Position numbers and translations under genes: made by a program. From assembly GCF_003334385.1 (NCBI RefSeq), contig NZ_QOWN01000042.1: DNA of 38,068 nt, one strand, 5' to 3'. Below the pieces are notes generated by a model. The model was not told where the DNA came from. It saw only the letters and a list, made by a program, of their open reading frames with translations, and made no database searches. This stretch comes from Escherichia coli (lineage in GTDB: Bacteria; Pseudomonadota; Gammaproteobacteria; Enterobacterales; Enterobacteriaceae). This document shows, in pieces, positions 1 through 31,332 of the stretch (position 1 is its first letter; each line of letters begins with the position of its first letter).

Positions 1-470
1 TTATCCACCGTTGCGCTGTCGCCGGTGATATCAATACCGTGACCGCCGCCGCTGACATCCAGATCGCCGTCCTGAATAACTTTTCCGTTATTACCGTTGA
101 TTTCCGTACCGGTGGAATCCTTGCCGTCAACGGTGGTTTTGCCGTTGTTGTTTGCCGTGGCGTCATCACCATTAATCTGGGTGCCGGTGCCACCGTTGGT
201 GATGGTGCTCTCGCCTTCGTTATTGACGATGGCCTTGTCACCGTCGATCTGGATACCCATGGACTCCGGATCGGTGACGGTCATGGTGCCCTTGTTATCC
301 ACCGTCGCGCTGTCACCGGTGATATCAATACCGTGACCGCCGCCGCTGACATCCAGATCGCCGTCCTGAATCACTTTCCCGTTATTACCGTTGATTTCCG
401 TACCGGTGGAATCTTTACCGTCAACGGTGGTTTTGCCATTGTTGTTTACTGTGGCATTATCACCCGTAAT
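1..470. repeat. Tandem 294-bp (98-codon) coding repeat inside ydbA passenger domain; copies start at 1 and 295 and are near-identical for ~165 bp
   Basis: Direct comparison of 1..165 with 295..460 (ttatccaccgt.gcgctgtc.ccggtgatatcaataccgtgaccgccgccgctgacatccagatcgccgtcctgaat...). Confidence 0.8.
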
Positions 471-1124
471 AACAAGCTCACCGTTGTGATTATATTGCCA
501 CTTCGTTGCGCCATCTGCGCTCACCCCTTCAAGGGCAACAGTGTTATTCGCTTCATCAATCTGCCAAAGATTAATCGTTGCCTTACGACCATTGCTATCT
601 TGCAGAGATATAGTCCCGTCAGCATTCTCGGTATAAGTAAAAACTGAATCGCGAATAGTTAACGTTTTTTCTGTTTTATCGAGAATAACGTCATTATTAA
701 ACGAAACCGGTTTGGGAGGTGTAGGCGTATCATCCGGATCGTCCGGTATTATCTCATCTCCGCCAGGAGTTGGGGGAACTGGAGTGTCGTCTGATTCATC
801 ATCAGGGGGTGTCGGTGGGAGTGGAGAATTGTTGCGATGATGATGATCATCATCGTCGTTTAGTTCCACTACGGCTAAGGCCGTGATTAACGCAGCAGCG
901 CCTGTGGAAAGCCATGGCATCAGGTTTTGTTCGACTAAAGGAGAGCATTCAGAGGGTAAGCGTTTAAGCTCTTCCGGACTGAGTTTTCCTGGGTCTGCCG
1001 GACAAGTCACATTGGTATTTTTCTTTTCACCTGTGGTGGTTTCTACCTCTGTGATATCTGCCGCCCAACCCTGACCACTCAGAGCTAATGCAATACAGGC
1101 CGACAATAGAGTTTTCCTTTGCAT
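1..1124 (-). CDS. ydbA: Autotransporter-like outer membrane protein, 5' portion (partial; continues past window start); N-terminal signal peptide MQRKTLLSACIALALSGQGWA then Pro/Asp-rich linker and ~98-aa passenger repeats
   Basis: Manual minus-strand translation from ATG at 1124..1122 gives a signal peptide and continuous repeat-rich frame to position 1. Not in the ORF track because no stop lies within the window. Position next to paaY matches ydbA. In K-12 ydbA is an IS-disrupted pseudogene; intactness cannot be judged here. Confidence 0.6.
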   Translation of the reverse strand, partial: MQRKTLLSACIALALSGQGWAADITEVETTTGEKKNTNVTCPADPGKLSPEELKRLPSECSPLVEQNLMPWLSTGAAALITALAVVELNDDDDHHHRNNSPLPPTPPDDESDDTPVPPTPGGDEIIPDDPDDTPTPPKPVSFNNDVILDKTEKTLTIRDSVFTYTENADGTISLQDSNGRKATINLWQIDEANNTVALEGVSADGATKWQYNHNGELVITGDNATVNNNGKTTVDGKDSTGTEINGNNGKVIQDGDLDVSGGGHGIDITGDSATVDNKGTMTVTDPESMGIQIDGDKAIVNNEGESTITNGGTGTQINGDDATANNNGKTTVDGKDSTGTEINGNNGKVIQDGDLDVSGGGHGIDITGDSATVD

Positions 1125-1393
1125 AATAAATCCTTCTGGCGAATATAAAGAAAGCCGGATGCACTAACCCGACCAATTAGTTATTTAAAACATAGAAGAC
1201 ATCCAATATTGCCAGTAGATTATTATCTAATCAAACATACTTTCCTATAATTCACAATTATAATTCAGGTGAATAAAAAAAGACCATGAAATATATAAAT
1301 TGTGTATATAATATAAATTACAAATTAAAACCACATTCTCATTATAAATAATTATATGATGAAAAAACGGTATGAATTAATACTCAAATAAAT

Positions 1394-1422
1394 AAAGCAG
1401 AGCTTAAACATAACTCTGCTTT
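1394..1422 (-). terminator. Stem-loop (aaagcagag / ctctgcttt) just 3' of paaY, followed on the minus strand by a T-rich tract; probable paaXY terminator
   Basis: Inverted repeat read directly, 30 bp downstream of the paaY stop. Confidence 0.4.
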
Positions 1423-1454
1423 ATAATTAAAGGGACAAAATAATTTTACATCTG

Positions 1455-2045
1455 TTACTGTTTCGGTCGCAGATTCTCATCAAATACCAGGCGTTTCCTG
1501 CCAGGTTCAATTTCCCGCAATGGCTCGACTTGATGTAACGTCTGCTTACAGCGTGTCACCAGCACCTGGTACTCATGCGTACCCTGCTTTTTCCATGCCA
1601 ACTCCTGCTCACTGAGTTCACGAATCGCTTTCGCCGGGCTGCCGACAATCAGGTAATTAGCTGGTATTTCTGCTTTGGCTTTCACAAATGCGGATGCACC
1701 AACAATGCTGTTCTCGCCAATCACCGCACCGTCCATCACTACCGCGTTCATTCCCACTAATGCATTGCGGCGGATAATGCAGCCGTGAAGGATAGCGCTA
1801 TGACCAATATGTCCATCTTCTCCTACAACAGTATCCTGCTCGGGAAAACCGTGCATAACGCAATTATCCTGAATGTTCGCGCCATCTTTCACCACGATAC
1901 GACCAAAATCGCCACGCAGGCTGGCATTTGGCCCAACGTAAACGCCCTTGCCGAGAATAACATCGCCGATCAATACCGCTGTCGGATGGACAAAACTCTC
2001 TTCTGGCACAACCGGAGTCAGACCGTCTATCTGATAAATTGGCAT
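1455..2045 (-). CDS. paaY: PaaY, hexapeptide-repeat (gamma-carbonic-anhydrase-like) acyl-CoA thioesterase of the phenylacetate pathway
   Basis: 196-aa ORF with left-handed beta-helix hexapeptide repeats; last gene of the paa cluster after paaX. Confidence 0.85.
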
Positions 2046-2977
2046 AACGCCTCCTGTTCAATATTCAAGCCGCCAAAACGTTGAAAATACAGGCTTCCCG
2101 GCGCAGGCAGTTCACCGACCGAGGTTTCACCTTTTTCACTAACGAACGCTAAAGCAGCAGGCGCTACGCGCTGATAAATGTTGATACACAGCTGACGCGC
2201 CGTATGCCCTGCCCAGTGTGCCGGAAGCAACTCCTCCGGCAACAATGGGTCTTTAAGGACGACACGGCGATAAAAATGGATCAGTAAAAGCTGAATATGA
2301 AATGCCCGCTCCGGGGTTAACTCGTCTGCCGCCTCTTTTAAAAGCGGCACCAGCGGGCGGAATGACTGAATAAAGGTTTCGTACATGGCATTTTGTTCAG
2401 TTAAATGCCAGCACTCTTCTACTCTGGCACGCAGTGCTGCGCGAGAAAGCGCCAGTGGTATTTGCGCTTCAAAACAAATCACGTTATCCGCCACACCCGC
2501 TTCATGCAAAAGTGTCTGTACATCGGCCAGTTTTTGCGACGGCGATGCCATCAGGCTGGGTGCCAGTGCGCCAAAACCTTGCCAGATCAACTGCTTTTTG
2601 ACATCAGCCAGCGTTGATTTATCTAAACCTTCCGAGAGCAACAGGAGCCATTTACCATCCCATGCAGGTTGCTCTGCGCGATAAATTTTACTTTCTGCCC
2701 GTCGCGTCAGGCGCAAGCCTTTATCACTGAGGCTATAGAAACTGCGTCGCCCGATGCGGGAAACATCCAGCCAGCCTTCTTTATTAAGACGAAACAAAGC
2801 GGTGCGCACGAAACGCTCACCAAATCCCAGCCCTTCCAGCAAAGCAGCCAGACTACCCAACCAGATTTCACCACCACGATGGGAAAGCGAATCACCATAC
2901 AGAGAGGAGATCAAAGATGTGCCACTGACCGGAACAGCGTTTACAGCATGTTGGATAAAAGTATCAAGTTTACTCAT
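2027..2977 (-). CDS. paaX: PaaX, transcriptional repressor of the paa operons (phenylacetyl-CoA responsive)
   Basis: 316-aa ORF, expected length and position; overlaps the paaY start by 19 nt. Confidence 0.85.
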
Positions 2978-3037
2978 TCGCTTCAGTCTGTTGTTATTGT
3001 TGTGATTTATGAATCATAGCACAGGTCGTATCGACTT

Positions 3038-3069
3038 CTGGCCCTGGCGCTTTACCCCACCAGGGCCAG
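3038..3069. other. Perfect 10-bp inverted repeat (ctggccctgg ... ccagggccag, 12-nt loop) in the paaK–paaX intergenic region; possible paaK terminator or regulatory hairpin
   Basis: Read directly; no clear U-tract. Confidence 0.3.
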
Positions 3070-3077
3070 ACGATACG

Positions 3078-4391
3078 TCAGGCACCAACAATATTGCGCA
3101 GATCAAACACCCGACACGCCTTGCCTTCTGAACGCGGGATACTGCCACAGTTAACGATCATCACATCGGTAGAGATCCCCACCATCGACTTAATCCGATG
3201 GCGCAGCTGGTGGCATACCTGGCAACGCTGCTCATGCGTCAATGTCAGGCTACTTTCTTTCAACTCCACTTTCACAGAAAGTGAATCAAGATGCCCCCGG
3301 CGGTTCACCTCCAGTTGGTAATGCGGCGATAAATGTTCGAATTTGACAATCTCTTCTTCCAGTTGTGACGGAAAGACATTTACACCGCGAATAATCAACA
3401 TGTCATCGCTGCGTCCGCTGATGCGATCCATGCGGCGCATAGTCCGCGCCGTTCCTGGTAACAGTCGGGTTAAATCACGCGTGCGGTAACGAATGACCGG
3501 CAATGCTTCTTTGGTCAGCGTGGTGAATAACAGTTCGCCATGTTCACCATCGGCAAGCGGTGTGCCGTCATGAGGATTAACAATTTCAGGATAGAAATGA
3601 TCTTCCCAAATGGTTGGGCCGTCGGTAGTTTCCAGACACTCCATCGCCACCCCCGGCCCCATCACTTCTGACAGGCCATAAATATCCAGTGCGGTGATCC
3701 CCAGGCGACGCTCAATCTCTTTACGCATGGCCTGTGTCCACGGCTCAGCACCAAATACTCCAACCCGCAGCGAGCAACCGCTGGCATCACCGCCCAACTG
3801 CCGCTCCAGCTCTTCAATCAGGTTAAGGCAATAAGATGGCGTAACCATGATCATATCTGGTTGAAAATCACGGATCAGTTGCGCTTGTTTTTCCGTCTGC
3901 CCGCCAGACATCGGGATCACCGTAGCGCCCAGACGTTCGGCACCATAGTGCGCACCCAGCCCACCAGTAAACAGGCCGTAACCATAGGCAACATGAATTT
4001 TGTCTTTGGGCGAGCCCCCTGCCGCACGCAAAGAACGCGCTACAATATTGGCCCAGTTATCAATATCGTTTTGCGTATAGCCGACAACTGTCGGTTTACC
4101 TGTGGTTCCCGAAGAAGCATGAATGCGCACCACTTGTTCCATTGGCACGGCAAAGGTGTCAAAGGGATAGTTGTCGCGCAGATCCTGTTTGGTGGTACAG
4201 GGAAATTTACGCAGGTCTGAAAGTTCCCTGAAATCATCAGGATGTACGCCTGCTGCGTCGAATTTGCGCCGATACATCGGCACATTTTCATACGCGTGTT
4301 TGAGCGTCCATTTCAGACGCTGTGTTTGCAACGCCTGTAACTCATCAACAGACGCGGTTTCAATCGGGTCAAGCTTTGTATTGGTTATCAT
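3078..4391 (-). CDS. paaK: PaaK, phenylacetate–CoA ligase
   Basis: ORF 3078..4475; start placed at internal ATG 4391 (MITNTKLDP...) giving 437 aa; adenylate-forming enzyme motifs. Confidence 0.85.
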   Translation of the reverse strand: MITNTKLDPIETASVDELQALQTQRLKWTLKHAYENVPMYRRKFDAAGVHPDDFRELSDLRKFPCTTKQDLRDNYPFDTFAVPMEQVVRIHASSGTTGKPTVVGYTQNDIDNWANIVARSLRAAGGSPKDKIHVAYGYGLFTGGLGAHYGAERLGATVIPMSGGQTEKQAQLIRDFQPDMIMVTPSYCLNLIEELERQLGGDASGCSLRVGVFGAEPWTQAMRKEIERRLGITALDIYGLSEVMGPGVAMECLETTDGPTIWEDHFYPEIVNPHDGTPLADGEHGELLFTTLTKEALPVIRYRTRDLTRLLPGTARTMRRMDRISGRSDDMLIIRGVNVFPSQLEEEIVKFEHLSPHYQLEVNRRGHLDSLSVKVELKESSLTLTHEQRCQVCHQLRHRIKSMVGISTDVMIVNCGSIPRSEGKACRVFDLRNIVGA

Positions 4392-4417
4392 TGTAGGGTA
4401 CTCGCAGGTTGATATGC

Positions 4418-5623
4418 TCAAACACGCTCCAGAATCATGGCGATGCCCTGACCGACACCGATGCACATGGTGCACAATGCGTAACGACCGTTACGCCGAT
4501 GCAGCTCATGGCTGGCAGCCAGTGCCAGGCGGGCACCACTCATTCCCAACGGATGGCCTAAGGCGATAGCGCCTCCGTTGGGGTTAACATGTGGGGCATC
4601 ATCAGGCAGCCCCAATTCGCGTAGTACACCCAACGCCTGGGCCGCGAACGCTTCGTTCAGTTCAATCACGTCCATATCGTGAATACTCAGCCCTGCGCGT
4701 TCCAGCACCCGGCGAGTTGCAGGCACCGGACCAAGCCCCATCAGGCGCGGTTCCACCCCGGCGGTTGCCATGGCTACGATACGCGCCCGCGGTGTCAGTC
4801 CTTGCGCTGCTGCCATCTGTTCACTGGCAATAATCAACGCAGCGGCTCCGTCATTCACCCCGGAAGCATTGCCTGCGGTAATCACCCCATTGGCACGAAA
4901 TGGTGCTTTTAACCCACGTAACTGTTCCAGCGTCGTTTCCGGGCGCAGATGCTCATCATGTTGTATTTCTGTTACAACACCTTTCTTGTTTTTCAACACA
5001 ACCGGAACAATCTCCTCAGCCAGAATGCCTGAGGATTGCGCTTTTGCCGTACGTTGCTGACTGCGTAGCGCAAAACTATCTTGATCTTCTCGTGAGATTT
5101 TTAACAGTTCAGCTACATTCTCTGCCGTTTCCGGCATGCTGTCAGTTCCAAATTGCTGAGCCATGAGCGGGTTCACAAATCGCCAGCCAATAGTGGTATC
5201 GAACATCTCAGCCTGACGAGAAAATGCACTGGCTGCCTTGCCCATAACAAACGGTGCCCGTGACATTGACTCCACGCCACCGGCGATCAGCAAATCGCCA
5301 TCGCCCGCTTTAATCGCCCGTGCGGCAAACCCCAGTGCGTCCAGCCCGGAACCACACAAGCGGTTAATGGTTGTGCCGGAAACACTCTGCGGCAGCCCCG
5401 CCAGTAAAGTCGCCATCCGGGCTACGTTACGGTTATCTTCTCCCGCCTGATTAGCACAGCCGAGGATCACATCATCGATACACTCCGCATCGAGACGCGG
5501 GTTTCGCACCAGCAGTTCCCGCAAAGGGATAGCAGCCAGATCATCAGCCCGAACACTTGATAATGCCCCGCCGTAGCGACCAATTGGCGTACGAATTCCG
5601 TCACAAATAAAGGCTTCACGCAT
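4418..5623 (-). CDS. paaJ: PaaJ, 3-oxoadipyl-CoA / 3-oxo-5,6-dehydrosuberyl-CoA thiolase
   Basis: 401-aa thiolase-fold ORF with catalytic Cys context (NRLCGSG) and C-terminal GxGxG. Confidence 0.85.
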
Positions 5624-6045
5624 CAGGCTTCTCCTGTAATGGTGCCGCCGATGCGGTGAGATTTACCGCGAAACAGCGCAACCGTTTTTTGTTGTTGGTT
5701 AACAATTTCGATGTCGTAAACACCGGTTTGCTTGCCCTGATGACGTACCTGCGCAGTAGCAGTTAAGGTGTCTCCGGCAAAGCCTGGACGCAAAAAATCA
5801 ATCGTGCAGGCAGAAGCGACGGCTGCCAGCCCCTGGCTATTGCAGGCGTAGGCAAAGGCAGTATCAGCCAGTGAAAATAGCTGCCCGCCGTGGCAACTTT
5901 GATGACCGTTAAGCATTTGTGCAGTGACGGTCATGGTCACTACAGCAAAGCCTTCATCCATTGAGATAATGTCGATGCCAAGCGCTTTGGCGCAGGCATC
6001 GTTCTCATACATTGCATGGGCATTTTGCCAGGCCTTATGACTCAT
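5623..6045 (-). CDS. paaI: PaaI, hotdog-fold phenylacetyl-CoA thioesterase
   Basis: ORF 5623..6129; start placed at MSHKAWQNAH (140 aa). Confidence 0.8.
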   Translation of the reverse strand: MSHKAWQNAHAMYENDACAKALGIDIISMDEGFAVVTMTVTAQMLNGHQSCHGGQLFSLADTAFAYACNSQGLAAVASACTIDFLRPGFAGDTLTATAQVRHQGKQTGVYDIEIVNQQQKTVALFRGKSHRIGGTITGEA

Positions 6046-7462
6046 AACCGCTCTCCAGAAGCGCCCGTTGGCGCAGCAATGAACATGGGCGATAGCGTTC
6101 TTCGCCATAGTGATGCTGTAGATTTTCAAGGAGCCTTAATATTCGCTGCCAGCCAAGTTGCGCTCCCCAGGCAAGTGGGCCATATGGATAATTCACCCCA
6201 AGACGCATGGCGGTATCGATATCCTGTTCAGAGGCCACGCCTTTTTGAAGCGCATCAAGGGCTTCATTGATGATCATTGCTACCGTTCGCCAAATCAGCA
6301 TTCCTGGGTAATCTGCAATTTGCAGCACTGTTTTGCCCTGCTGTTGCAGGTAATAAATGGCCTTGCGGGTCGCTGAGTCCGGGTTCACCGCTGCAGCAGC
6401 AATGGTCACCACCTTGCCCGCCATTTTATCGATCACTACCACCGGGCGTGCCAGTCGTATTGCCAGCGCCTGTGCCGTCTCGCCTTGTGTCTCAATCAAT
6501 AAAACATCGTCAATTTCCGTGACACCGTCACTTTTCTTTTCTACTTTCATTGGGCTAAAACTGTCGCTTACCGCTTCCAGGCCAACAACTGCCTCACGTT
6601 CCGCGCGCCAGTCGTACACGCCCAGCCCACTTTTCTTGCCCAACCGTCCACCAATCACCAGTTCCTGTTGCACCAGCGAAGGTAAAAAACGACGCTCCTG
6701 CCAGAAAGCGTTAAACACCGAACAGGTGACAGCAAAATTGACGTCCTGACCAATCAGATCGGTTAATTCCAGCGGCCCCATCGGGAAACCAGCGCCATCG
6801 CGAAGTGCAGCGTCAATCACTTCTGGTGCAGCAACCTGCTCTTCCAGTGCCCGCCAGGCCTCGGAATAATAAGGACGCGCAACACGGTTAACGATAAATC
6901 CAGGAGTCGAATGACAGCGCACAGGCTGCTTACCCCAACTCAACGTTAGTTCACACAACTGCTCAACAACTTCCGCCGCCGTTGCCAGCCCACTGACCAC
7001 CTCCACCAACTTCATCACCGGTGCCGGGTTAAAAAAATGCAGCCCCGCAACACGTTCAGGATTTTTTATCTCCGCAGCAATCGCGGTTATAGAGATTGAC
7101 GAAGTGTTAGTGGTCAATAGCGTTTGTGGCGGGCAAACTTCCGCCAGCTGTGCAAAGAGCGCTTTTTTGACTTCCAGACGTTCAGACGCCGCTTCAATGA
7201 CCAGGTCCGCAGCTGCCAGCGCGTGAATATCGGTCACCGGGATCAGGCGTTTCAATGTGCGTTCACAGGTTTCAGCAGTCAGTTTTCCCCGCGTCACGCG
7301 TGAATTTAGCCGCGCGTGTATCCCGTCGATTGCGCGGGTCAGCGCTTCAGCAGAAATGTCATACAGTAAAACCTGGTGTCCATGACTGGCAGCAACTTCA
7401 GCAATGCCTGCCCCCATGGTGCCGCTCCCAATCACTGCCACAGTTTGCACATTTATCATCAT
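6035..7462 (-). CDS. paaH: PaaH, NAD-dependent 3-hydroxyadipyl-CoA dehydrogenase
   Basis: ORF 6035..7558; start placed at MMINVQTVAVIGSGTMGAG (Rossmann GxGxxG), 475 aa. Confidence 0.85.
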   Translation of the reverse strand: MMINVQTVAVIGSGTMGAGIAEVAASHGHQVLLYDISAEALTRAIDGIHARLNSRVTRGKLTAETCERTLKRLIPVTDIHALAAADLVIEAASERLEVKKALFAQLAEVCPPQTLLTTNTSSISITAIAAEIKNPERVAGLHFFNPAPVMKLVEVVSGLATAAEVVEQLCELTLSWGKQPVRCHSTPGFIVNRVARPYYSEAWRALEEQVAAPEVIDAALRDGAGFPMGPLELTDLIGQDVNFAVTCSVFNAFWQERRFLPSLVQQELVIGGRLGKKSGLGVYDWRAEREAVVGLEAVSDSFSPMKVEKKSDGVTEIDDVLLIETQGETAQALAIRLARPVVVIDKMAGKVVTIAAAAVNPDSATRKAIYYLQQQGKTVLQIADYPGMLIWRTVAMIINEALDALQKGVASEQDIDTAMRLGVNYPYGPLAWGAQLGWQRILRLLENLQHHYGEERYRPCSLLRQRALLESGYES

Positions 7463-7463
7463 G

Positions 7464-8252
7464 CTATTTCCCCGTGAACTGCGGTGAGCGTTTAGCCAGG
7501 AACGCACTGACACCTTCACGATAATCTGCGCTCCGTCCGGCAAGTCGCTGATAGTCACGTTCCAGATCCAGTTGCGTATCGAGCGTATTGGTTTCAGCGC
7601 TATTTATCGCTTGCTTGATAAGTCCAAGACCAAATGTCGGTTGTGTCGCCAGATGCCGTGCCAGCTGTTGCGCGGTATCTGCCAGCGTTTCATCATCAAC
7701 AACCTGCCAGATCATCCCCCATTCGTGCGCCTGTTCAGCACTCAGTTGATTCCCCAGCAGTGCCAGCCCCATGGCGCGCGCTCGTCCGGCAACGCGTGGC
7801 AGTAACCAGGTTCCACCGCAATCGGGTATTAAGCCTAACTTACTAAACGCCATGACGAATTTTGCTGAACGGGCAGCAATAACGATGTCGCCCCCCAGTG
7901 CCAGTGTTGCGCCTGCCCCTGCCGCCACGCCATTGACTGCACAGATCACCGGTTTTGGCAGTTTTGCCAGGCGACGTACCAGTGGGTTATAGAAACGTTC
8001 AACTGACATCCCTAAATCCGGTGCGGGGCCTGTGGGATCAACGTTACGATCGTTAAGATCCTGACCAGCACAAAATCCGCGCCCGGCACCTGTAAGTAAC
8101 AGGCAACGGATAGTGTCGTCGCGCTCGACCTGTTTCAGGCACTCTGCCAGTTGTGCGTGCATCTCATCATTAAAACTGTTCAGGCGTTCCGGGCGGTTGA
8201 GCGTTAGTGTCATCACGCCCTTTTCTACATGACTGAGGATGAATTCCATCAT
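7464..8252 (-). CDS. paaG: PaaG, crotonase-family 1,2-epoxyphenylacetyl-CoA isomerase
   Basis: 262-aa enoyl-CoA hydratase/isomerase-fold ORF. Confidence 0.85.
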   Translation of the reverse strand: MMEFILSHVEKGVMTLTLNRPERLNSFNDEMHAQLAECLKQVERDDTIRCLLLTGAGRGFCAGQDLNDRNVDPTGPAPDLGMSVERFYNPLVRRLAKLPKPVICAVNGVAAGAGATLALGGDIVIAARSAKFVMAFSKLGLIPDCGGTWLLPRVAGRARAMGLALLGNQLSAEQAHEWGMIWQVVDDETLADTAQQLARHLATQPTFGLGLIKQAINSAETNTLDTQLDLERDYQRLAGRSADYREGVSAFLAKRSPQFTGK

Positions 8253-9019
8253 TAGCGTCCTTTAAAGTCGGGCGTGCGTTTTTGTAAGAAAGCGGAGATG
8301 CCTTCATGACGATCTTCTGTTGCCGCCAGCAAGGTGAATAACTGTCGCTCCTGGGCAAGTCCGGCTTGCAAAGCCACTTCCTGCGACTGGCGCAGCGCTT
8401 GCTTTGCCGCTTGTAAGGCCAGCGGCGAGTGACGTGCCATTTTCGATGCCAGCTGTAAGGCGTATTCGAGGGTTAAATCGCTGGGGAAGACGTCGCTAAC
8501 CAGCCCGGCCTGCTGTGCTTGCTGAGCGGTGATACTTTCTCCGCTCAGCACCATTTTGCTGGCTAACGATTTACCGACACTACGGATTAAACGTTGCGTT
8601 CCGCCTGCGCCAGGCATGATGCCGAGAGTGATTTCCGGCAACCCAAAACGCGCGTTCTCTCCGGCAACCACCACATCGCACAACAATGCCAGTTCGCAAC
8701 CCGCCCCAAGCGCGTAACCATTGACGGCTGCGATAAGTGGTTTATTAAAGGCCTGCAATCGCGCCCATAGCTGCGGACGTGTATCGTTTAAGGTGGCCGC
8801 GAGATCTTTTTCTGCCATTTCGTTGAGATCGGCCCCAGCGGCAAAAAAGCGTGCATTACCGGTAATCACACAGACCGAAATGCTGGTATCGGTAGCCGCA
8901 GCTTCCAGTTCATTTACCAGTTGCATCAGCAGGGCATTATTTAGCGCATTACGTGCGGCGGGACGGTTAAGGGTCAGCAACAATACTCGTTGCTGACGGC
9001 TGACGATCAGTTCGCTCAT
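8252..9019 (-). CDS. paaF: PaaF, crotonase-family 2,3-dehydroadipyl-CoA hydratase
   Basis: 255-aa enoyl-CoA hydratase-fold ORF; ATGA overlap with paaE stop. Confidence 0.85.
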   Translation of the reverse strand: MSELIVSRQQRVLLLTLNRPAARNALNNALLMQLVNELEAAATDTSISVCVITGNARFFAAGADLNEMAEKDLAATLNDTRPQLWARLQAFNKPLIAAVNGYALGAGCELALLCDVVVAGENARFGLPEITLGIMPGAGGTQRLIRSVGKSLASKMVLSGESITAQQAQQAGLVSDVFPSDLTLEYALQLASKMARHSPLALQAAKQALRQSQEVALQAGLAQERQLFTLLAATEDRHEGISAFLQKRTPDFKGR

Positions 9020-10086
9020 GCCATCCCCTTCGCGTCAAAGTCAACCACCACATCGCTGGTCAGCGGCAGTGCCTGGCAACTCAACACATAACCTGCGGCC
9101 AGTTCATCCGGTTCCAGACTGTAATTGGTTTCCATCGCCACTTTGCCACGCAGCACTTTGCATTTGCAGGTCGCACAGACGCCGCCTTTGCAGGCATAGG
9201 GCAGATCCGCCCCCTGGCGCAATGCCGCATCGAGAATGCTTTCATCGTCGGCATTAAGCACGATTTCCCGATCCCGCCCATCCTGACGTACAGTCACTTT
9301 TTGTCCGTCACTTTGCACGTTAACGCTACGTTTGACGCGCGTGCCAGGCGTATTAAACCGCTCCAGATGAATGGTTTTATCTGGCATTCCCAGTGCTTTT
9401 AAGGCGGTTTCCGCGTCATCCATCATCGCCGCCGGACCACAAATAAATGCCTCATCATAAAGACGAAAATTAATGAGCGAGGCCCCAAGTGACTGTAATT
9501 TTTCACCGTCAATACGCCCGTGAAGCAGATCGCTGTCGAGGGTTTCCTGACTGAAAATGCACAACAACTGTAAACGCTGAGGATATTTGTCTTTCAGGTC
9601 TGCCAGTGCCTAGCGAAACATCATGCTCTGGCTGGTACGGTTACCGTAGATCAGGGTGAACTGACTTTCAGGCTCGGTTTGTAAAGTGGTGGCGATAATC
9701 GCCAGCATTGGCGTAATACCTGATCCTGCTGCAATTGCCAGATAGCGCCCCTGGCGTTCGGCCTGCGGCTGATAGCCGAAATGCCCCTGCGGCACCATGA
9801 CCTCCAGCGTCATACCCTGGCGGATGTGTTCGCGGGCATAGCGGGAGAAACGTCCGCCTTCAATGGCTTTCACCGCCACACTAATTTCGCCAGGCAGATA
9901 GCTGCGGCAAATGGAGTAACAACGGCGTAATTCTTCACCATCAAAGCTGGCTTTTAAGGTCAAATGTTGACCGGGGCGAAAGCGATACGCCTCCTGCAAA
10001 GGCTGGGGCACCGCAAAGGTAATGGTCACCGCATCACGGGTTTCCGACTCGACTTTTGCCACTGTTAAGGAATGAAACGTTGTCAT
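9016..10086 (-). pseudogene. paaE: PaaE, reductase subunit (ferredoxin-NADP reductase-like with C-terminal 2Fe-2S domain) of the phenylacetyl-CoA epoxidase, interrupted by an in-frame TAG at 9612..9610 (codon 159)
   Basis: ORFs 9610..10296 and 9016..9567 are in the same frame. Manual translation across the junction reads ...SQSMMFR*ALADLKDKYPQRLQLLCIFSQE... From ATG 10086 the gene would be 356 codons apart from this one stop. Confidence 0.7.
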
Positions 10087-10093
10087 GGCATCC

Positions 10094-20829: not shown

Positions 20830-23465
20830 TGTTTTTCCTCACACTCTTTTCCTTGCGGACAGTCATTTCCCGGCAGACGTGCGTTCTGCTCCAGCCATGC
20901 CTGGAGATTATCGCCAAAGCGTAAACTGCGCCACAGCGTAAAAATATTCTCTTCATGATGGTAATTAAGGTTTACCGTACCGCTTTTACCATCAACGCGA
21001 CTGGTACCTGTAATGTTGGCCTGCATGGTTAATAAACCGAGATTATCTAAATTAATTTTTGTCGATGAACGGCTAATTTCCATATAGCGCAACCAGTTAA
21101 TTGCTGAACCCGCAGTCATATTGTCTTTTACCACCGCATCCGCAGTGTCTTTATCCAGTCGCAATGTCATCGGCCCGCTATTCGCCAGCCAGCCATCTTT
21201 CACAATCCATTTTTCATTGTTCAGCCATAACGGCAGTGCACCACTAAATGCCCCGGACATGGCGAATTGTTTCGGATTGACGGCGCTAACCAGTTCGCTG
21301 GATGAGAGATTATTCAGCCGCAACAGCGCCGGGTCATGTTGCGGCATACGTAATTGTTTCATCAGTACGTTACCGCCTAACACATCGACGCTAACATCAG
21401 TCAACAGCAAGGGTTCTTCTTCAGTCCACGGATAACGCCCTTGCAAATCAGCCGTAATATTTTTCGCTGTCACCAGATTAATCACTTCGGCAATTCGCAA
21501 CGTAACGGGGCCGCGAGTCCCCAGATGCCAGGCTCCATCGGCAAAACGGAAAGGCAGGACAAAATCGACACCGTTAACCTGATTATCTGGCATCCAGGCA
21601 CTACCGCCTTTCAACACGCCGTGTCCTCCCGCGCGGAATCCTTGTTCAGGCGCAGCAGAAAATGCAACCTGAGCATACAGTTCACCATCGCGTAAGTTCA
21701 TCTTCCAGTCGGGTGGCACCAGCGGCTGGAATACGGTCAGTGATTGTTTAGGCCACCAGGCGTTACCGCGCAGACGAATACCGTCCCAGCGACCATTTAC
21801 CCGAACCGGGCCAATCTCACCAGCATGTAAATCGCCTTTAAAGAGGAAATAGGTAGGATCGCGCCCATCGACGCTAAATTTTAAGGTTGATGGCGGTAAC
21901 ACACTGCCGCCAGTGAACAGCGTTTGCCCGGCGTCCAGTGACAGCGCGCCGCTAAAGGAGGGATGCTGTGCGTCACGTACCCAGACGATGGGCTTGTCGA
22001 GAATTAATCGCGGCTTTTCTACCGTCATCGTACCGTATTGTAACTGGTCGAAACCGGTGGAGAGATCGGTCAGCGTAATCGTGCTGTCATGCCACTCACC
22101 TTTTCCTGCGACATCCCAGGTGGCATTCATCGGTGTAAAACTCCCTTTTCCCCAGTAGCGCCACTGCCAGCGGCCAGCGTCAGGGAGAAAATCATTCGCC
22201 AGCCCATCCATATGCAGCACGAAATCGCCCAGTTCATTTTCATGCGCCTGCAAGATGGCCTGCAAACGTCCGTCAACACCACGTTGGGTGACTTTTACAC
22301 CCGCTAAAGGCCAGCGGATTTCATCGATGTCCAGCGAATCGATGACTCTTCCCTTTGAACGAAGTAACGCGCCTGGCTCAAAGGTCAGCGTTGGGTCAGA
22401 CAGACTTCCACTTAGCTGCGCAGGTAAACGGGCATATAAAATGAGGTCCGCCTGTTTCGCTTCACCGGTCAGCTGCAGAGGCAGCTGACTGTTATCCATG
22501 CTTAATTTTCCTGGGCCAAAATTAAGCACCGCGTTGCCCTTACCCGCTTGCCCCTGGGTCAGCACACTCAGTCGTCCGCTGACCAGAGCGTTCTCAAGCC
22601 CTGCCTGCCAGTTGTCGACTTTGACACCCAGTCGGCCACTCAAAGGAAAACCTGCATACGGCCAGCTCCAGCGACCATCGCTTACGGTCAATTGTTGACG
22701 AGTAATTTGCCACGGCAAATCGAGCAACGGATCGCCGTTATCCCGTGCCAGCACGATCAATTGCCCGCTATTTTCCTGCCAGTCCAGCTCGGCATCCACC
22801 AGTGACGGTTCCTGCGGCAAGTTTAACGTCGCAGTAGCATGCCCACTTACAGGAAGTCCATCCGGCACGAGCGGCATAGCAAATTCCCCCACCAGTTTTA
22901 CCGGCGGCTGATTTTCAAACGCGACGACATCCAGTTCGCTGACTGTAAGTTGTTGCCCTTTCAGCTGGCCTTGAAATTTAACTTTTTCGCCCTGATAACG
23001 CAGTTGCTGGATATCAGAGGTTAATGCGAGAGAGAGTTTTCCCTGCCATTCCTGCCAGGGAGAAAAAATCAGTTTATCGATATTGATCCAGGTGTTAGGC
23101 AGCATGGCCTGCCACTGCGCGAGTGTTTTTGGAGCGGCTGGCGATTGCTCCGTCTGCGGCAATTTCGCCAGACAAGCAGAATCAAGTTCTACCGTGCCGA
23201 CGTTCAATAACCAGCGGCTGGGATGTGAAAGGCTGGCGTTGGTGATATGCGCAAGCTGACAATCTCCCACCAGATAACGGAGATCGGGAATGATTAAACC
23301 TTTACGCGTAATGCGTGGGCTTTCATCTAATGCAATACGTGTCCCGAGCGGTAGCCAGATGCCCGCCAGCGTGGGAACCCACAGCCCGAGCGTCATCAGC
23401 AGCGTCAACGGCACAAGAATAATCAGTAATAACAGCGCGAGAACGGCTTTATATTTACCCAGCAT
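20826..23465 (-). CDS. ydbH: Large AsmA-like inner-membrane-anchored periplasmic protein (proposed lipid transport)
   Basis: 879-aa ORF with N-terminal transmembrane helix; first gene of ydbH-ynbE-ydbL. Confidence 0.85.
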   Translation of the reverse strand: MLGKYKAVLALLLLIILVPLTLLMTLGLWVPTLAGIWLPLGTRIALDESPRITRKGLIIPDLRYLVGDCQLAHITNASLSHPSRWLLNVGTVELDSACLAKLPQTEQSPAAPKTLAQWQAMLPNTWINIDKLIFSPWQEWQGKLSLALTSDIQQLRYQGEKVKFQGQLKGQQLTVSELDVVAFENQPPVKLVGEFAMPLVPDGLPVSGHATATLNLPQEPSLVDAELDWQENSGQLIVLARDNGDPLLDLPWQITRQQLTVSDGRWSWPYAGFPLSGRLGVKVDNWQAGLENALVSGRLSVLTQGQAGKGNAVLNFGPGKLSMDNSQLPLQLTGEAKQADLILYARLPAQLSGSLSDPTLTFEPGALLRSKGRVIDSLDIDEIRWPLAGVKVTQRGVDGRLQAILQAHENELGDFVLHMDGLANDFLPDAGRWQWRYWGKGSFTPMNATWDVAGKGEWHDSTITLTDLSTGFDQLQYGTMTVEKPRLILDKPIVWVRDAQHPSFSGALSLDAGQTLFTGGSVLPPSTLKFSVDGRDPTYFLFKGDLHAGEIGPVRVNGRWDGIRLRGNAWWPKQSLTVFQPLVPPDWKMNLRDGELYAQVAFSAAPEQGFRAGGHGVLKGGSAWMPDNQVNGVDFVLPFRFADGAWHLGTRGPVTLRIAEVINLVTAKNITADLQGRYPWTEEEPLLLTDVSVDVLGGNVLMKQLRMPQHDPALLRLNNLSSSELVSAVNPKQFAMSGAFSGALPLWLNNEKWIVKDGWLANSGPMTLRLDKDTADAVVKDNMTAGSAINWLRYMEISRSSTKINLDNLGLLTMQANITGTSRVDGKSGTVNLNYHHEENIFTLWRSLRFGDNLQAWLEQNARLPGNDCPQGKECEEKQ

Positions 23466-23672
23466 GGGTAGTTAATATCCTGATTTAGCGAAAAATTAAG
23501 CATTCAATACGGGTATTGTGGCATGTTTAACCGTTCAGTTGAAGGTTGCGCCTACACTAAGCATAGTTGTTGATGAATTTTTCAATATCGCCATAGCTTT
23601 CAATTAAATTTGAAATTTTGTAAAATATTTTTAGTAGCTTAAATGTGATTCAACATCACTGGAGAAAGTCTT

Positions 23673-24662
23673 ATGAAACTCGCCGTTTATAGCACAAAAC
23701 AGTACGACAAGAAGTACCTGCAACAGGTGAACGAGTCCTTTGGCTTTGAGCTGGAATTTTTTGACTTTCTGCTGACGGAAAAAACCGCTAAAACTGCCAA
23801 TGGCTGCGAAGCGGTATGTATTTTCGTAAACGATGACGGCAGCCGCCCGGTGCTGGAAGAGCTGAAAAAGCACGGCGTTAAATATATCGCCCTGCGCTGT
23901 GCCGGTTTCAATAACGTCGACCTTGACGCGGCAAAAGAACTGGGGCTGAAAGTAGTCCGTGTTCCAGCCTATGATCCAGAGGCCGTTGCTGAACACGCCA
24001 TCGGTATGATGATGACGCTGAACCGCCGTATTCACCGCGCGTATCAGCGTACCCGTGATGCTAACTTCTCTCTGGAAGGTCTGACCGGCTTTACTATGTA
24101 TGGCAAAACGGCAGGCGTTATCGGTACCGGTAAAATCGGTGTGGCGATGCTGCGCATTCTGAAAGGTTTTGGTATGCGTCTGCTGGCGTTCGATCCGTAT
24201 CCAAGTGCAGCGGCGCTGGAACTCGGTGTGGAGTATGTCGATCTGCCAACCCTGTTCTCTGAATCAGACGTTATCTCTCTGCACTGCCCGCTGACACCGG
24301 AAAACTATCATCTGTTGAACGAAGCCGCCTTCGAACAGATGAAAAATGGCGTGATGATCGTCAATACCAGTCGCGGTGCATTGATTGATTCTCAGGCAGC
24401 AATTGAAGCGCTGAAAAATCAGAAAATTGGTTCGTTGGGTATGGACGTGTATGAGAACGAACGCGATCTATTCTTTGAAGATAAATCCAACGACGTGATC
24501 CAGGATGACGTATTCCGTCGCCTGTCTGCCTGCCACAACGTGCTGTTTACCGGGCACCAGGCATTCCTGACAGCAGAAGCTCTGACCAGTATTTCTCAGA
24601 CTACGCTGCAAAACTTAAGCAATCTGGAAAAAGGCGAAACCTGCCCGAACGAACTGGTTTAA
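23673..24662 (+). CDS. ldhA: Fermentative NAD-dependent D-lactate dehydrogenase
   Basis: 329-aa D-2-hydroxyacid dehydrogenase ORF (GxGxxG motif GVIGTGKIG). Confidence 0.9.
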   Translation: MKLAVYSTKQYDKKYLQQVNESFGFELEFFDFLLTEKTAKTANGCEAVCIFVNDDGSRPVLEELKKHGVKYIALRCAGFNNVDLDAAKELGLKVVRVPAYDPEAVAEHAIGMMMTLNRRIHRAYQRTRDANFSLEGLTGFTMYGKTAGVIGTGKIGVAMLRILKGFGMRLLAFDPYPSAAALELGVEYVDLPTLFSESDVISLHCPLTPENYHLLNEAAFEQMKNGVMIVNTSRGALIDSQAAIEALKNQKIGSLGMDVYENERDLFFEDKSNDVIQDDVFRRLSACHNVLFTGHQAFLTAEALTSISQTTLQNLSNLEKGETCPNELV

Positions 24663-24772
24663 TCTTGCCGCTCCCCTGCATTCCAGGGGAGCTGATTCAG
24701 ATAATCCCCAATGACCTTTCATCCTCTATTCTTAAAATAGTCCTGAGTCAGAAACTGTAATTGAGAACCACA

Positions 24773-25195
24773 ATGAAGAAAGTAGCCGCGTTTGTTGCGC
24801 TAAGCCTGCTGATGGCGGGATGTGTAAGTAATGACAAAATTGCTGTTACGCCAGAACAGCTACAGCATCATCGCTTTGTGCTGGAAAGCGTAAACGGTAA
24901 GCCCGTGACCAGCGATAAAAATCCGCCAGAAATCAGCTTTGGTGAAAAAATGATGATTTCTGGCAGCATGTGTAACCGCTTTAGCGGTGAAGGCAAACTG
25001 TCTAATGGTGAACTGACAGCCAAAGGGCTGGCAATGACCCGTATGATGTGCGCTAACCCGCAGCTTAATGAACTCGATAACACCATTAGCGAAATGCTGA
25101 AAGAAGGTGCACAAGTGGATCTGACCGCGAACCAGTTAACGCTGGCGACCGCAAAACAGACATTAACTTATAAGCTGGCGGATTTAATGAATTAA
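24773..25195 (+). CDS. hslJ: Heat-inducible lipoprotein HslJ
   Basis: ORF 24761..25195 begins at a TTG; start placed at ATG 24773 (MKKVAAFVALSLLMAGC lipobox), 140 aa. Confidence 0.85.
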   Translation: MKKVAAFVALSLLMAGCVSNDKIAVTPEQLQHHRFVLESVNGKPVTSDKNPPEISFGEKMMISGSMCNRFSGEGKLSNGELTAKGLAMTRMMCANPQLNELDNTISEMLKEGAQVDLTANQLTLATAKQTLTYKLADLMN

Positions 25196-25458
25196 TAGCT
25201 GCCACAGCTCCCGGCGGCAAGTGACTGTTCGCTACAGCGTTTGCCGTTGGGTAATGCACACATCCCAATCGCCGTACCATCCAGTTGACGGGCAACAGAA
25301 AGCGAACCGCCGATCATTGCACAATTTGCTTCTCCACTACTGGACATCGACGCTTTTAAACCTGGCGCTACGTGCGCGGCAGTCGCCTGCTGAACAGGTT
25401 CACTACTACACGCCGACAACAATAAAGCGGCACACCCTACCCAAAACGCTGCTCGCAT
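25192..25458 (-). CDS. ydbJ: Small DUF333 lipoprotein
   Basis: 88-aa ORF with lipobox (LLSAC); convergent with hslJ and overlapping its end by 4 nt. Confidence 0.75.
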   Translation of the reverse strand: MRAAFWVGCAALLLSACSSEPVQQATAAHVAPGLKASMSSSGEANCAMIGGSLSVARQLDGTAIGMCALPNGKRCSEQSLAAGSCGSY

Positions 25459-25731
25459 CTTTTCTTCCTCTGATCTTCAAGCCAAACGACACCGCCATAA
25501 ATAATAGGCAGCACAGAGGGCGGCGTCGAGAGCTGTCCTGCGCGTTGCCCCGCATTTTTACTTTTTTATGGCTATTTTTTTGCCCTCTGTTTGATCAAAA
25601 CATTCATTACGCTGATGTGGGGGACACAAAAGCGAAAATGCAGAAGAAAGCCATTTGCTAAAATTGAAAGATTACTACTGGGCGCGCAGCAATTTCGTGC
25701 GCCCCTCATTTGCGCAATGTAAGGGTGTCAT

Positions 25732-28700
25732 ATGATTACTATTGACGGTAATGGCGCGGTTGCTTCGGTCGCATTTCGCACCAGTGAAGTTATCGCCATC
25801 TACCCTATTACCCCCAGTTCCACGATGGCAGAACAGGCTGATGCCTGGGCCGGAAACGGCTTAAAGAACGTTTGGGGAGACACACCACGCGTGGTTGAAA
25901 TGCAGTCGGAAGCGGGTGCTATCGCTACCGTGCATGGCGCTTTGCAGACGGGTGCCCTTTCAACATCGTTTACGTCATCGCAGGGTTTGCTGCTGATGAT
26001 CCCGACGCTGTACAAACTGGCAGGCGAACTAACACCGTTTGTCCTGCATGTAGCGGCACGTACCGTTGCCACACATGCACTCTCTATTTTTGGCGATCAT
26101 TCCGACGTTATGGCGGTGCGCCAGACGGGTTGCGCGATGTTGTGTGCAGCAAACGTCCAGGAAGCGCAAGACTTTGCTCTCATTTCGCAAATCGCGACGC
26201 TGAAAAGCCGCGTGCCATTTATTCATTTCTTTGATGGTTTCCGCACGTCCCACGAAATCAATAAAATTGTCCCGCTGGCCGATGACACGATTCTTGATCT
26301 CATGCCGCAGGTCGAAATTGATGCTCATCGCGCCCGGGCACTCAACCCGGAACATCCGGTGATCCGCGGTACGTCCGCCAATCCTGACACTTATTTCCAG
26401 TCTCGCGAAGCCACCAACCCATGGTACAACGCGGTCTATGACCATGTTGAACAGGCGATGAATGATTTCTCTGCCGCGACAGGTCGTCAGTATCAGCCGT
26501 TTGAATATTACGGGCATCCGCAAGCGGAACGGGTGATTATCCTGATGGGCTCTGCCATTGGCACCTGTGAAGAAGTGGTTGATGAATTGCTAACCCGTGG
26601 CGAAAAAGTTGGCGTGCTGAAAGTTCGCCTGTACCGCCCCTTCTCCGCTAAACATTTACTGCAAGCTCTGCCGGGATCCGTACGCAGCGTGGCGGTACTG
26701 GACAGAACCAAAGAACCCGGTGCCCAGGCAGAACCGCTCTATCTGGATGTAATGACCGCACTGGCAGAAGCCTTTAATAATGGCGAGCGCGAAACTCTGC
26801 CCCGTGTCATTGGTGGGCGCTATGGTCTTTCATCCAAAGAATTTGGCCCAGACTGTGTACTGGCGGTATTTGCCGAGCTCAACGCGGCTAAACCGAAAGC
26901 GCGCTTTACGGTTGGTATTTACGATGATGTGACCAATCTGTCACTGCCGTTGCCGGAAAACACCCTGCCAAACTCGGCGAAACTGGAAGCCTTGTTTTAT
27001 GGCCTTGGTAGTGATGGCAGCGTTTCCGCGACCAAAAACAATATCAAGATTATCGGTAATTCCACGCCGTGGTACGCACAGGGCTATTTTGTTTACGACT
27101 CCAAAAAGGCGGGCGGCCTGACGGTTTCTCACCTTCGAGTGAGCGAACAGCCGATTCGTTCCGCTTATCTCATTTCCCAGGCTGATTTTGTTGGCTGCCA
27201 CCAGTTGCAGTTTATCGATAAATATCAGATGGCTGAGCGTTTAAAACCTGGCGGCATTTTCCTGCTCAACACGCCGTACAGCGCAGATGAAGTGTGGTCG
27301 CGCTTGCCGCAAGAAGTTCAGGCCGTGTTAAACCAGAAAAAAGCGCGCTTCTATGTGATTAACGCGGCGAAAATCGCCCGCGAATGTGGCCTGGCGGCCC
27401 GTATTAATACCGTCATGCAGATGGCTTTTTTCCATCTGACGCAAATTCTGCCTGGCGATAGCGCCCTCGCAGAATTGCAGGGTGCGATTGCCAAAAGTTA
27501 CAGTAGCAAAGGCCAGGATCTGGTGGAACGCAACTGGCAGGCTCTGGCGCTGGCGCGTGAATCCGTAGAAGAAGTTCCGTTGCAACCGGTAAATCCGCAC
27601 AGCGCCAATCGACCGCCAGTGGTTTCCGATGCCGCCCCTGATTTCGTGAAAACCGTAACCGCTGCGATGCTCGCCGGGCTTGGTGACGCCCTCCCCGTTT
27701 CGGCGCTGCCGCCAGACGGCACCTGGCCGATGGGCACTACGCGCTGGGAAAAACGCAATATCGCCGAAGAGATCCCCATCTGGAAAGAGGAACTCTGTAC
27801 CCAATGTAACCACTGCGTTGCCGCTTGCCCACACTCAGCTATTCGCGCAAAAGTGGTGCCGCCTGAAGCGATGGAAAACGCCCCTGCCAGCCTGCATTCG
27901 CTGGATGTGAAATCGCGTGATATGCGCGGGCAGAAATATGTCTTGCAGGTGGCACCGGAAGATTGCACCGGTTGTAACCTGTGCGTCGAAGTTTGCCCGG
28001 CGAAAGACCGTCAGAATCCAGAGATTAAAGCCATCAATATGATGTCTCGCCTGGAACATGTCGAAGAAGAGAAAATCAATTACGATTTCTTCCTCAACCT
28101 GCCAGAAATCGACCGTAGCAAACTGGAACGTATTGATATTCGTACATCGCAGCTGATTACACCGCTGTTTGAATATTCAGGTGCTTGCTCCGGTTGTGGC
28201 GAGACGCCGTATATTAAATTACTGACTCAGCTCTATGGCGACCGGATGTTGATCGCTAACGCCACTGGCTGTTCTTCAATTTATGGCGGTAACCTGCCCT
28301 CTACACCGTATACCACCGATGCCAACGGTCGTGGGCCGGCATGGGCGAACTCTCTATTTGAAGATAATGCCGAATTTGGCCTTGGTTTCCGCCTGACGGT
28401 CGATCAACACCGTGTCCGCGTGCTGCGTCTGCTGGATCAATTTGCCGATAAAATCCCGGCGGAATTACTGACGGCGTTGAAATCAGACGCCACGCCAGAG
28501 GTTCGTCGTGAACAGGTTGCAGCTTTACGCCAGCAACTCAACGATGTTGCCGAAGCACATGAACTGCTACGTGATGCAGATGCACTGGTGGAAAAATCAA
28601 TCTGGCTGATTGGTGGTGATGGCTGGGCTTACGATATCGGCTTTGGCGGTCTGGATCATGTATTGAGTTTGACGGAAAACGTCAACATTCTGGTGCTGGA

Positions 28701-29256
28701 TACGCAATGCTATTCCAACACCGGTGGTCAGGCGTCGAAAGCGACACCGCTGGGTGCAGTAACTAAATTTGGCGAGCACGGCAAACGTAAAGCGCGTAAA
28801 GATCTTGGCGTCAGTATGATGATGTACGGTCATGTTTATGTGGCGCAGATTTCTCTCGGCGCGCAGCTGAACCAGACGGTGAAAGCGATTCAGGAAGCGG
28901 AAGCGTATCCGGGGCCATCGCTGATCATTGCTTATAGCCCGTGTGAAGAGCATGGTTACGATCTGGCACTCAGCCACGACCAGATGCGCCAACTCACAGC
29001 TACCGGCTTCTGGCCGCTATATCGCTTTGATCCGCGTCGTGCCGATGAAGGCAAACTGCCGCTGGCCTTGGATTCACGCCCGCCGTCAGAAGCACTGGAA
29101 GAAACGTTACTTCACGAGCAACGTTTCCGTCGGCTGAATTCGCAGCAGCCAGAAGTGGCAGAACAGTTATGGAAAGATGCTGCAGCTGATTTGCAAAAAC
29201 GCTATGACTTCCTGGCACAAATGGCCGGAAAAGCGGAAAAAAGCAACACCGATTAA
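25732..29256 (+). CDS. ydbK: Pyruvate:ferredoxin/flavodoxin oxidoreductase (single-polypeptide PFOR with two 4Fe-4S ferredoxin motifs and TPP domain)
   Basis: 1174-aa ORF; CxxCxxCxxxCP motifs (CTQCNHCVAACP, CTGCNLCVEVCP) and C-terminal TPP-binding region. Confidence 0.9.
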   Translation: MITIDGNGAVASVAFRTSEVIAIYPITPSSTMAEQADAWAGNGLKNVWGDTPRVVEMQSEAGAIATVHGALQTGALSTSFTSSQGLLLMIPTLYKLAGELTPFVLHVAARTVATHALSIFGDHSDVMAVRQTGCAMLCAANVQEAQDFALISQIATLKSRVPFIHFFDGFRTSHEINKIVPLADDTILDLMPQVEIDAHRARALNPEHPVIRGTSANPDTYFQSREATNPWYNAVYDHVEQAMNDFSAATGRQYQPFEYYGHPQAERVIILMGSAIGTCEEVVDELLTRGEKVGVLKVRLYRPFSAKHLLQALPGSVRSVAVLDRTKEPGAQAEPLYLDVMTALAEAFNNGERETLPRVIGGRYGLSSKEFGPDCVLAVFAELNAAKPKARFTVGIYDDVTNLSLPLPENTLPNSAKLEALFYGLGSDGSVSATKNNIKIIGNSTPWYAQGYFVYDSKKAGGLTVSHLRVSEQPIRSAYLISQADFVGCHQLQFIDKYQMAERLKPGGIFLLNTPYSADEVWSRLPQEVQAVLNQKKARFYVINAAKIARECGLAARINTVMQMAFFHLTQILPGDSALAELQGAIAKSYSSKGQDLVERNWQALALARESVEEVPLQPVNPHSANRPPVVSDAAPDFVKTVTAAMLAGLGDALPVSALPPDGTWPMGTTRWEKRNIAEEIPIWKEELCTQCNHCVAACPHSAIRAKVVPPEAMENAPASLHSLDVKSRDMRGQKYVLQVAPEDCTGCNLCVEVCPAKDRQNPEIKAINMMSRLEHVEEEKINYDFFLNLPEIDRSKLERIDIRTSQLITPLFEYSGACSGCGETPYIKLLTQLYGDRMLIANATGCSSIYGGNLPSTPYTTDANGRGPAWANSLFEDNAEFGLGFRLTVDQHRVRVLRLLDQFADKIPAELLTALKSDATPEVRREQVAALRQQLNDVAEAHELLRDADALVEKSIWLIGGDGWAYDIGFGGLDHVLSLTENVNILVLDTQCYSNTGGQASKATPLGAVTKFGEHGKRKARKDLGVSMMMYGHVYVAQISLGAQLNQTVKAIQEAEAYPGPSLIIAYSPCEEHGYDLALSHDQMRQLTATGFWPLYRFDPRRADEGKLPLALDSRPPSEALEETLLHEQRFRRLNSQQPEVAEQLWKDAAADLQKRYDFLAQMAGKAEKSNTD

Positions 29257-29284
29257 ATGCTCTGGATAAGGATTATCCAATTCT

Positions 29285-29316
29285 AAAAAAAAAAGCCCGG
29301 ACGACTGTTCGGGCTT
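29285..29316. terminator. Bidirectional intrinsic terminator shared by ydbK (+) and micC (−): A-run, agcccgg/ccgggct hairpin, T-run
   Basis: Hairpin with flanking A10 and T5 runs read directly. Confidence 0.75.
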
Positions 29317-29396
29317 GTCTTTTTATATGTTGGAAAATCAGTGGCAATGCAATGGCCCAACAGAAAATAAAATCTGTGACAATAAAGGCATATAAC
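29287..29396 (-). ncRNA. micC: MicC small regulatory RNA (Hfq-dependent repressor of ompC translation)
   Basis: Minus strand reads GTTATATGCCTTTATTGTCACAGATTTTATTTTCTGTTGGGCCATTGCATTGCCACTGATTTTCCAACATATAAAAAGACAAGCCCGAACAGTCGTCCGGGCTTTTTTTTT, matching the MicC sequence as I recall it; located between ydbK and ompN as described for micC. Confidence 0.85.
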
Positions 29397-30757: not shown

Positions 30758-30765
30758 ATCCTCCT

Positions 30766-30789: not shown

Positions 30790-30816
30790 CTGCTTATTCT
30801 TCCTCCTTTGATCTAA

Positions 30817-31332
<516 letters not shown>

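Follow-up and report, generated by a model that had tools for sequence, protein, structure and literature searches.

Among the closest described systems for the mutation studied here are the amber hotspots in lacI, which, according to Coulondre et al. 1978 as reviewed in PMC12606429, lie at the second C of CCAGG, are about 10-fold over-represented and are caused by deamination of 5-methylcytosine to thymine. Deamination at such sites is normally reversed by Vsr very-short-patch (VSP) repair (PMC2715241). For the pathway, the closest case is that of phylogroup A mastitis Escherichia coli, in which independent deletions have removed tynA-paaZABCDE and paaFGHIJKXY have been retained (Goldstone et al. 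2016, PMC4951805). The protein concerned, PaaE, is the class IA reductase of the phenylacetyl-CoA epoxidase and is described as 'essential for the overall reaction' (PMC4498308).

Here we analysed a 38,068-nt stretch of E. coli DNA (the window), in which paaE is interrupted by an in-frame stop codon. Positions 1..30087 are collinear with MG1655 in the order ydbA'-paaYX-paaKJIHGFEDCBA-paaZ-tynA-feaB-feaR-ydbL-ynbE-ydbH-ldhA-hslJ-ydbJ-nifJ-ompN, and, as in the annotated MG1655 sequence, paaE follows paaD immediately within the paaABCDEFGHIJK operon and overlaps paaF. The features of the locus are as follows.

1455..2977, minus strand: paaX, with a protein identical to that of K-12, and paaY, whose product carries M127I, a change private to the window lineage
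3078..9019, minus strand: paaF-paaK, intact, proteins identical to those of K-12; in one operon with the stop and downstream of it, with overlap between the paaE TGA and the ATG of paaF
9016..10086, minus strand: paaE pseudogene (1,2-phenylacetyl-CoA epoxidase reductase subunit), a single base away from K-12 paaE
9016..9609, minus strand: 3' remnant of paaE, untranslated, encoding the remainder of NAD_binding_1 and the 2Fe-2S domain Fer2
9025..9030, minus strand: AAGGGG, Shine–Dalgarno (SD)-like, 5 nt upstream of the paaF ATG, read from the sequence
9609..9613, minus strand: CTAGG, a former Dcm site by comparison with K-12 (CCAGG), the changed base being the inner C that is methylated by Dcm
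9610..9612, minus strand: premature amber TAG at paaE codon 159, from the sequence and the K-12 alignment, in which this codon is CAG (Gln)
9613..10086, minus strand: translatable N-terminal fragment of 158 codons, encoding FAD_binding_6 and the first ~40 residues of NAD_binding_1
10094..12589, minus strand: paaA, paaB, paaC and paaD, intact, proteins identical to those of K-12
12874..14919, plus strand: paaZ, intact, protein identical to that of K-12

The paaE frame begins at the ATG at 10086..10084, runs through 158 sense codons to the TAG at 9612..9610 and then continues in frame to the TGA at 9018..9016, giving 356 codon positions plus stop, with the peptide SQSMMFR before the amber codon and ALADLKDK after it. 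On the plus strand, position 9612 is A in the window and G in K-12 MG1655, i.e. CAG is changed to TAG on the coding strand, and over the 1,071 bp of the gene this is the only difference between the two sequences. The paaE of the window is a pseudogene by nonsense mutation, with one in-frame stop over a full-length alignment to an intact member, and it fails as a functional PaaE in that the uninterrupted three-domain frame is absent. An earlier sequence-only reading of this DNA had described a gene of 356 codons from ATG 10086 to the stop at 9016 with TAG at codon 159, one C-to-T step away from CAG, overlapping paaF as ATGA in a cluster whose other paa genes were full length. The frame and the overlap agree with our reading of the sequence, the alignment with K-12 leaves exactly that one base, and no internal stops were found in the other paa genes, whose proteins match K-12 apart from the substitution in PaaY. 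Compared with K-12, the shared 30 kb contains 11 SNPs, site 9612 among them, and one 1-bp indel; the paaE stop is the sole disruptive change in the paa/tynA/fea region, where all other genes are open. The closest complete genome, SCU-104, differs from the window by 13 mismatches and a 10-bp indel over 33.7 kb and has a wild-type paaE.

In a Pfam scan of the K-12 orthologue, which equals the window frame except at codon 159, the domains of PaaE are FAD_binding_6 (7-105), NAD_binding_1 (118-226) and Fer2 (267-341). The stop at 159 cuts into NAD_binding_1 and eliminates the 2Fe-2S domain downstream, and the earlier statement that truncation at residue 158 takes away the C-terminal half including this domain can be placed more exactly, within NAD_binding_1 and before Fer2.

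The site resembles the lacI hotspots in that the second C of CCAGG has become T, turning an in-frame CAG into TAG. In contrast to lacI, for which mutation frequencies were obtained in a dcm+ laboratory strain, the mechanism at paaE codon 159 is something we infer from sequence context and haplotype recurrence. What the window has in common with the mastitis strains is a natural E. coli background in which ring epoxidation is, or is predicted to be, lost and the lower-pathway and regulatory genes are intact; the difference is that those strains have multi-gene deletions, whereas here a point mutation affects the reductase subunit alone and paaZ, paaA-D and tynA are present. The loss of paaE is a further indication that the paa ring-epoxidation step has been lost repeatedly among E. 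coli lineages, and paaE Q159stop shows the textbook signature of a Dcm amber hotspot in a natural setting.

The same allele was found elsewhere. A 61-nt probe centred on the TAG had a perfect match in 9 of the 3,142 complete genomes that have the segment, and about 3,130 complete genomes of E. coli have paaE as an intact, conserved gene of 356 codons. The nine RefSeq carriers (ECCRA-119, SCEC020022, 3R, GZEC065, J-8, EM06-18-14, YZMc10-2, EC187792 and CM188249) share with the window the gene, the codon, the C-to-T change to TAG within CTAGG and the intact neighbouring paa genes. They come from different laboratories and hosts, and the clone is known from both chickens and humans at several locations; the three that were compared (ECCRA-119, SCEC020022 and EM06-18-14) have 0-2 differences among them in 40 kb. 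In these three, PGAP annotates paaE as a pseudogene with 'internal stop', and the same allele is present in all nine. Moreover, the Logan contig L006 (35 kb, ERR1948963; one contig shared by 4 runs) matches window 384..20086 (19.7 kb) at 100% identity, TAG included, although the reads behind it are possibly those from which the window itself was assembled, its presence in four runs notwithstanding. The TAG also occurs in public contigs L005, L007 and L010 on slightly different K-12-like haplotypes, and an ENA metagenome scaffold carries the same T. Contigs L008, L009 and L011-L014, considered as candidates for within-sample polymorphism, were rejected as uninformative, because the wild-type C is their last base or lies just beyond their end. 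A literature search found no paper describing the codon-159 allele.

Three explanations would leave the organism with a working PaaE, and each has some evidence on its side. An assembly error over a true CAG, including a systematic Nanopore basecalling error at Dcm CCWGG sites, would agree with the position of the changed base exactly within a Dcm motif, where about 70% of the consensus errors of default ONT models occur (PMC6591954), and with the fact that an identical full-length paaE was absent from all complete RefSeq E. coli genomes, the best matches being one mismatch away. However, an uncorrected ONT assembly would err at many such motifs, and just 1 of the 94 CCWGG sites shared with K-12 (30 kb) is altered; the T is seen again in the k-mer-assembled contig from four runs, in the metagenome scaffold and in the other Logan contigs, and the nine near-identical RefSeq genomes from various laboratories and hosts give the allele a clonal, not a random, distribution. 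Because of this single altered site and this clonal distribution, a sequencing error appears very unlikely, and the variant is in all likelihood real in the organism. Sequencing or assembly error had been one of the alternatives of the sequence-only reading, which had also proposed to align the site against other E. coli paaE sequences; such alignment gives CAG in K-12 and TAG in nine complete genomes. The alternative that gains support instead is that of a strain-specific pseudogene, given the same allele in other genomes and the identical public contig.

If the amber codon is real, the gene might still be kept functional by readthrough, with Gln inserted by a supE-type suppressor (glnV, anticodon CUA) or a near-cognate tRNA-Gln. 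The lost codon is itself Gln and supE inserts Gln at amber codons, so suppression of this type would restore exactly the wild-type PaaE; the remaining cluster is free of further disruption, and the allele persists in a clone taken from chickens and humans in several places. Against this, intactness of the other genes is equally expected after a recent mutation, suppressor alleles are typical of laboratory strains rather than natural isolates, and basal UAG readthrough is low, usually well under a few percent. A scan of the 38-kb window detected no tRNA gene, hence no suppressor within it and no positive evidence for readthrough, and programmed recoding is not indicated either, with about 3,130 of the 3,142 complete genomes giving no perfect match to the TAG probe. 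We regard functional readthrough as quite improbable. For two halves acting as separate polypeptides, a naturally split PaaE, it can be said that gene callers predict a second ORF of 182 aa with Fer2 downstream of the stop. This ORF begins at a TTG that has no SD-like sequence, the break falls in the middle of the NAD-binding domain, residues 159-174 would be missing, and about 3,130 genomes have a single 356-aa gene. Reinitiation was therefore rejected as a candidate: no in-frame restart codon with an SD-like sequence was found between the stop and codon 355, and since the break also falls inside a domain, a functional split PaaE is unlikely on sequence grounds; we give a natural two-polypeptide enzyme practically no credence. 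In annotation, paaE should be marked here as a pseudogene and not as two ORFs. A genuine and recently formed pseudogene, specific to the window lineage and originating from a single C-to-T transition, is very probably the correct description.

As to the origin of this transition, K-12 and all wild-type relatives read CGCCAGGC where the window reads CGCTAGGC, so that the ancestral CCWGG site has undergone C to T at its inner C; in codons, the ancestral context is CGC CAG GCA, which contains CCAGG. Dcm is common in E. coli (PMC6591954, its ref. 7). Because the mutation struck the inner cytosine of a CCAGG Dcm site, the amber codon would most likely stem from deamination of 5-methylcytosine that escaped VSP repair by Vsr, methylation at the site being assumed for the window strain, whose dcm and vsr genes lie outside the 38-kb window. 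There are 121 single-base changes in paaE that could create a nonsense codon, among which 21 are transitions, all at Gln codons, and only 5 of the 121 proceed through a Dcm inner cytosine (codons 90, 112, 159, 291 and 338). Of the 11 SNPs relative to K-12, moreover, only site 9612 falls within a Dcm motif. The earlier reading did not remark that the mutation affects the methylated C of such a motif. Over the whole window, CCWGG occurs 111 times, and CTAGG is found twice when both strands are counted, the second copy at 17414 being present in K-12 as well. The tetranucleotide CTAG is strongly depleted, with 3 occurrences observed compared with ~148 expected from base composition; such depletion is a known pattern of E. 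coli and is usually attributed to VSP repair.

The TAG is not confined to one haplotype. Compared with the K-12-like haplotype of the window, that of the nine RefSeq carriers has 309 mismatches per 28 kb (1.1%), of which 11 fall within paaE, some before and some after the stop, and has no ydbA beside paaY. Each form can be matched with a wild-type gene: nt 475 (codon 159) is the sole difference between the ECCRA-119-type paaE and the wild-type paaE of the O104:H4 genome FDAARGOS_349, and the codon-159 base is likewise the sole difference between the window paaE and those of K-12 and many other genomes. At least 2 and probably 3 backgrounds bear the TAG, and for each there is a wild-type twin distinguished by that base alone. 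Moreover, K-12, SCU-104, L005 and the window each show a different pairing of the alleles at site 9612 and tynA site 16103, so that all four possible combinations are represented. Because every TAG haplotype has a wild-type twin differing at one base, TAG at codon 159 has likely arisen repeatedly, as judged from these alignments. Around the site, the window and the ECCRA-119 type agree over 321 bp, the nearest differences being 124 bp upstream and 195 bp downstream. Because of this identity of the two main haplotypes, movement in very short recombination tracts is possible, and the TAG has either arisen two or three times or moved in such tracts.

A single origin by any mechanism, followed by spread of the TAG between haplotypes through short-tract homologous recombination, would be invisible in these data if the tract was shorter than 321 bp, for it would then leave no trace between the two flanking differences. 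Nonsense alleles at non-Dcm codons are also public, with no obvious excess that requires recurrence. Such spread would need very short imports of a loss-of-function allele into at least 2, probably 3, backgrounds, all without flanking markers, and the change from CCAGG to CTAGG is a textbook hotspot signature; we consider a single origin with spread unlikely. An excess of nonsense alleles at Dcm sites was sought through exact truncated PaaE products for 5 Dcm and 5 non-Dcm Gln codons, with inspection of the contigs for four of them. Most of the exact-product matches came from wild-type genes whose contig stops 0-2 bases after the codon, so that the counts are confounded. In public contigs, true TAG alleles were seen for codons 100 and 142, which are non-Dcm, and for the Dcm codons 90 and 291, in addition to a truncation at 136; with true TAG at both kinds of codon the test does not discriminate, and we claim no enrichment of Dcm over non-Dcm sites. 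A more elaborate view takes codon 159 as a hypermutable two-way site, which Dcm deamination switches off (CCAGG to CTAGG) and Vsr correction switches on (CTAGG to CCAGG), the off state being repeatedly favoured in gut- or poultry-associated lineages in parallel to the tynA-paaZABCDE deletions of mastitis strains. If true, this would mean recurrent adaptive loss, or a toggle, of phenylacetate ring oxidation instead of neutral decay, and we hold it to be improbable. By comparison, the preferred reading is plain: RefSeq annotation already marks the allele as a pseudogene, the mechanism is textbook, and this is an ordinary lineage-specific pseudogene, in which nothing would surprise a specialist. 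As a separate observation, the carrier of the Q291 amber, L038 (Logan SRR26311470), has three C-to-T changes within 9 bp (paaE nt 870, 871 and 878), which resemble the trace of local cytosine deamination or damage, or else read errors.

In the proposed sequence of events, translation of paaE would halt after residue 158 and leave the FAD-binding domain with a stub of the NAD-binding domain and no 2Fe-2S domain. Electrons would then not pass from NADPH to the di-iron centre of PaaA, the PaaABC(D)E ring epoxidase would be inactive, and the bacterium would lose, wholly or in large part, its aerobic growth on phenylacetate and, through TynA/FeaB, on phenylethylamine. From the domain structure we strongly infer that ring epoxidation, and because of it aerobic phenylacetate catabolism, would be lost in the window lineage, and the lineage is predicted to be unable to use phenylacetate or phenylethylamine as a carbon source for aerobic growth. 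Accumulation of phenylacetyl-CoA is possible, as PaaK is intact.

From the amber codon to paaF, the transcript would contain about 590 nt of untranslated RNA. A scan of this stretch found no terminator-like or promoter-like sites, and in a crude C/G scan, which neither proves nor excludes Rho-dependent polarity, the RNA was G-rich and not C-rich. The AAGGGG in front of paaF could permit initiation at paaF without translational coupling to paaE. Polarity of the amber codon on paaF-K is thus possible, and the sequence gives it no positive support.

The remaining parts of the window yielded several minor observations. At its left end (1..~1120) the window starts within a ydbA/BigA-like autotransporter gene, which is interrupted by IS2 and IS30 in K-12 and is long and uninterrupted in L005 and SCU-104; internal beta-strand repeats in the ydbA region give rise to secondary self-matches of 89-93% identity. 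The right end contains ompN, uspF, sitABCD and two prophage-tail-fibre-like ORFs. Beyond ompN, at 30826..37771, uspF is followed by the sitABCD iron/manganese ABC transporter at 31918..35367 and by two minus-strand ORFs at 35580..36164 and 36164..37771, which have no NCBIfam hit and correspond to stretches that related genomes annotate as 'prophage tail fiber N-terminal domain'. For window 25001..38068, the best match to a complete genome is just 99.2%. SCU-104 has pseudogenes of its own in the region, namely ydbH with an internal stop (SCU-104 21777..24416) and uspF with a frameshift (SCU-104 31849..32273), the latter being a 10-bp deletion relative to window 30961..30970.

Judged against SCU-104 and every other haplotype examined, the lineage of the window and L006 has five private derived changes in 33.7 kb, at 1665, 9612, 12664, 16427 and 19740. 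These are PaaY M127I, PaaE Q159stop, an intergenic SNP between paaZ and paaA, one non-synonymous change in tynA and FeaR E170K. All five lie within the phenylethylamine/phenylacetate cluster, and the four coding ones are all non-synonymous or nonsense. The clustering fits relaxed selection on the pathway and is not significant (~0.56^5 = 0.05 for location alone). The intergenic change, T to C on the paaA coding strand at 12664, is located in the divergent paaZ-paaA promoter region (12590..12873), ~75 bp upstream of the paaA ATG and ~20 nt upstream of the PaaX-box-like sequence AATGTGATTCGTG.
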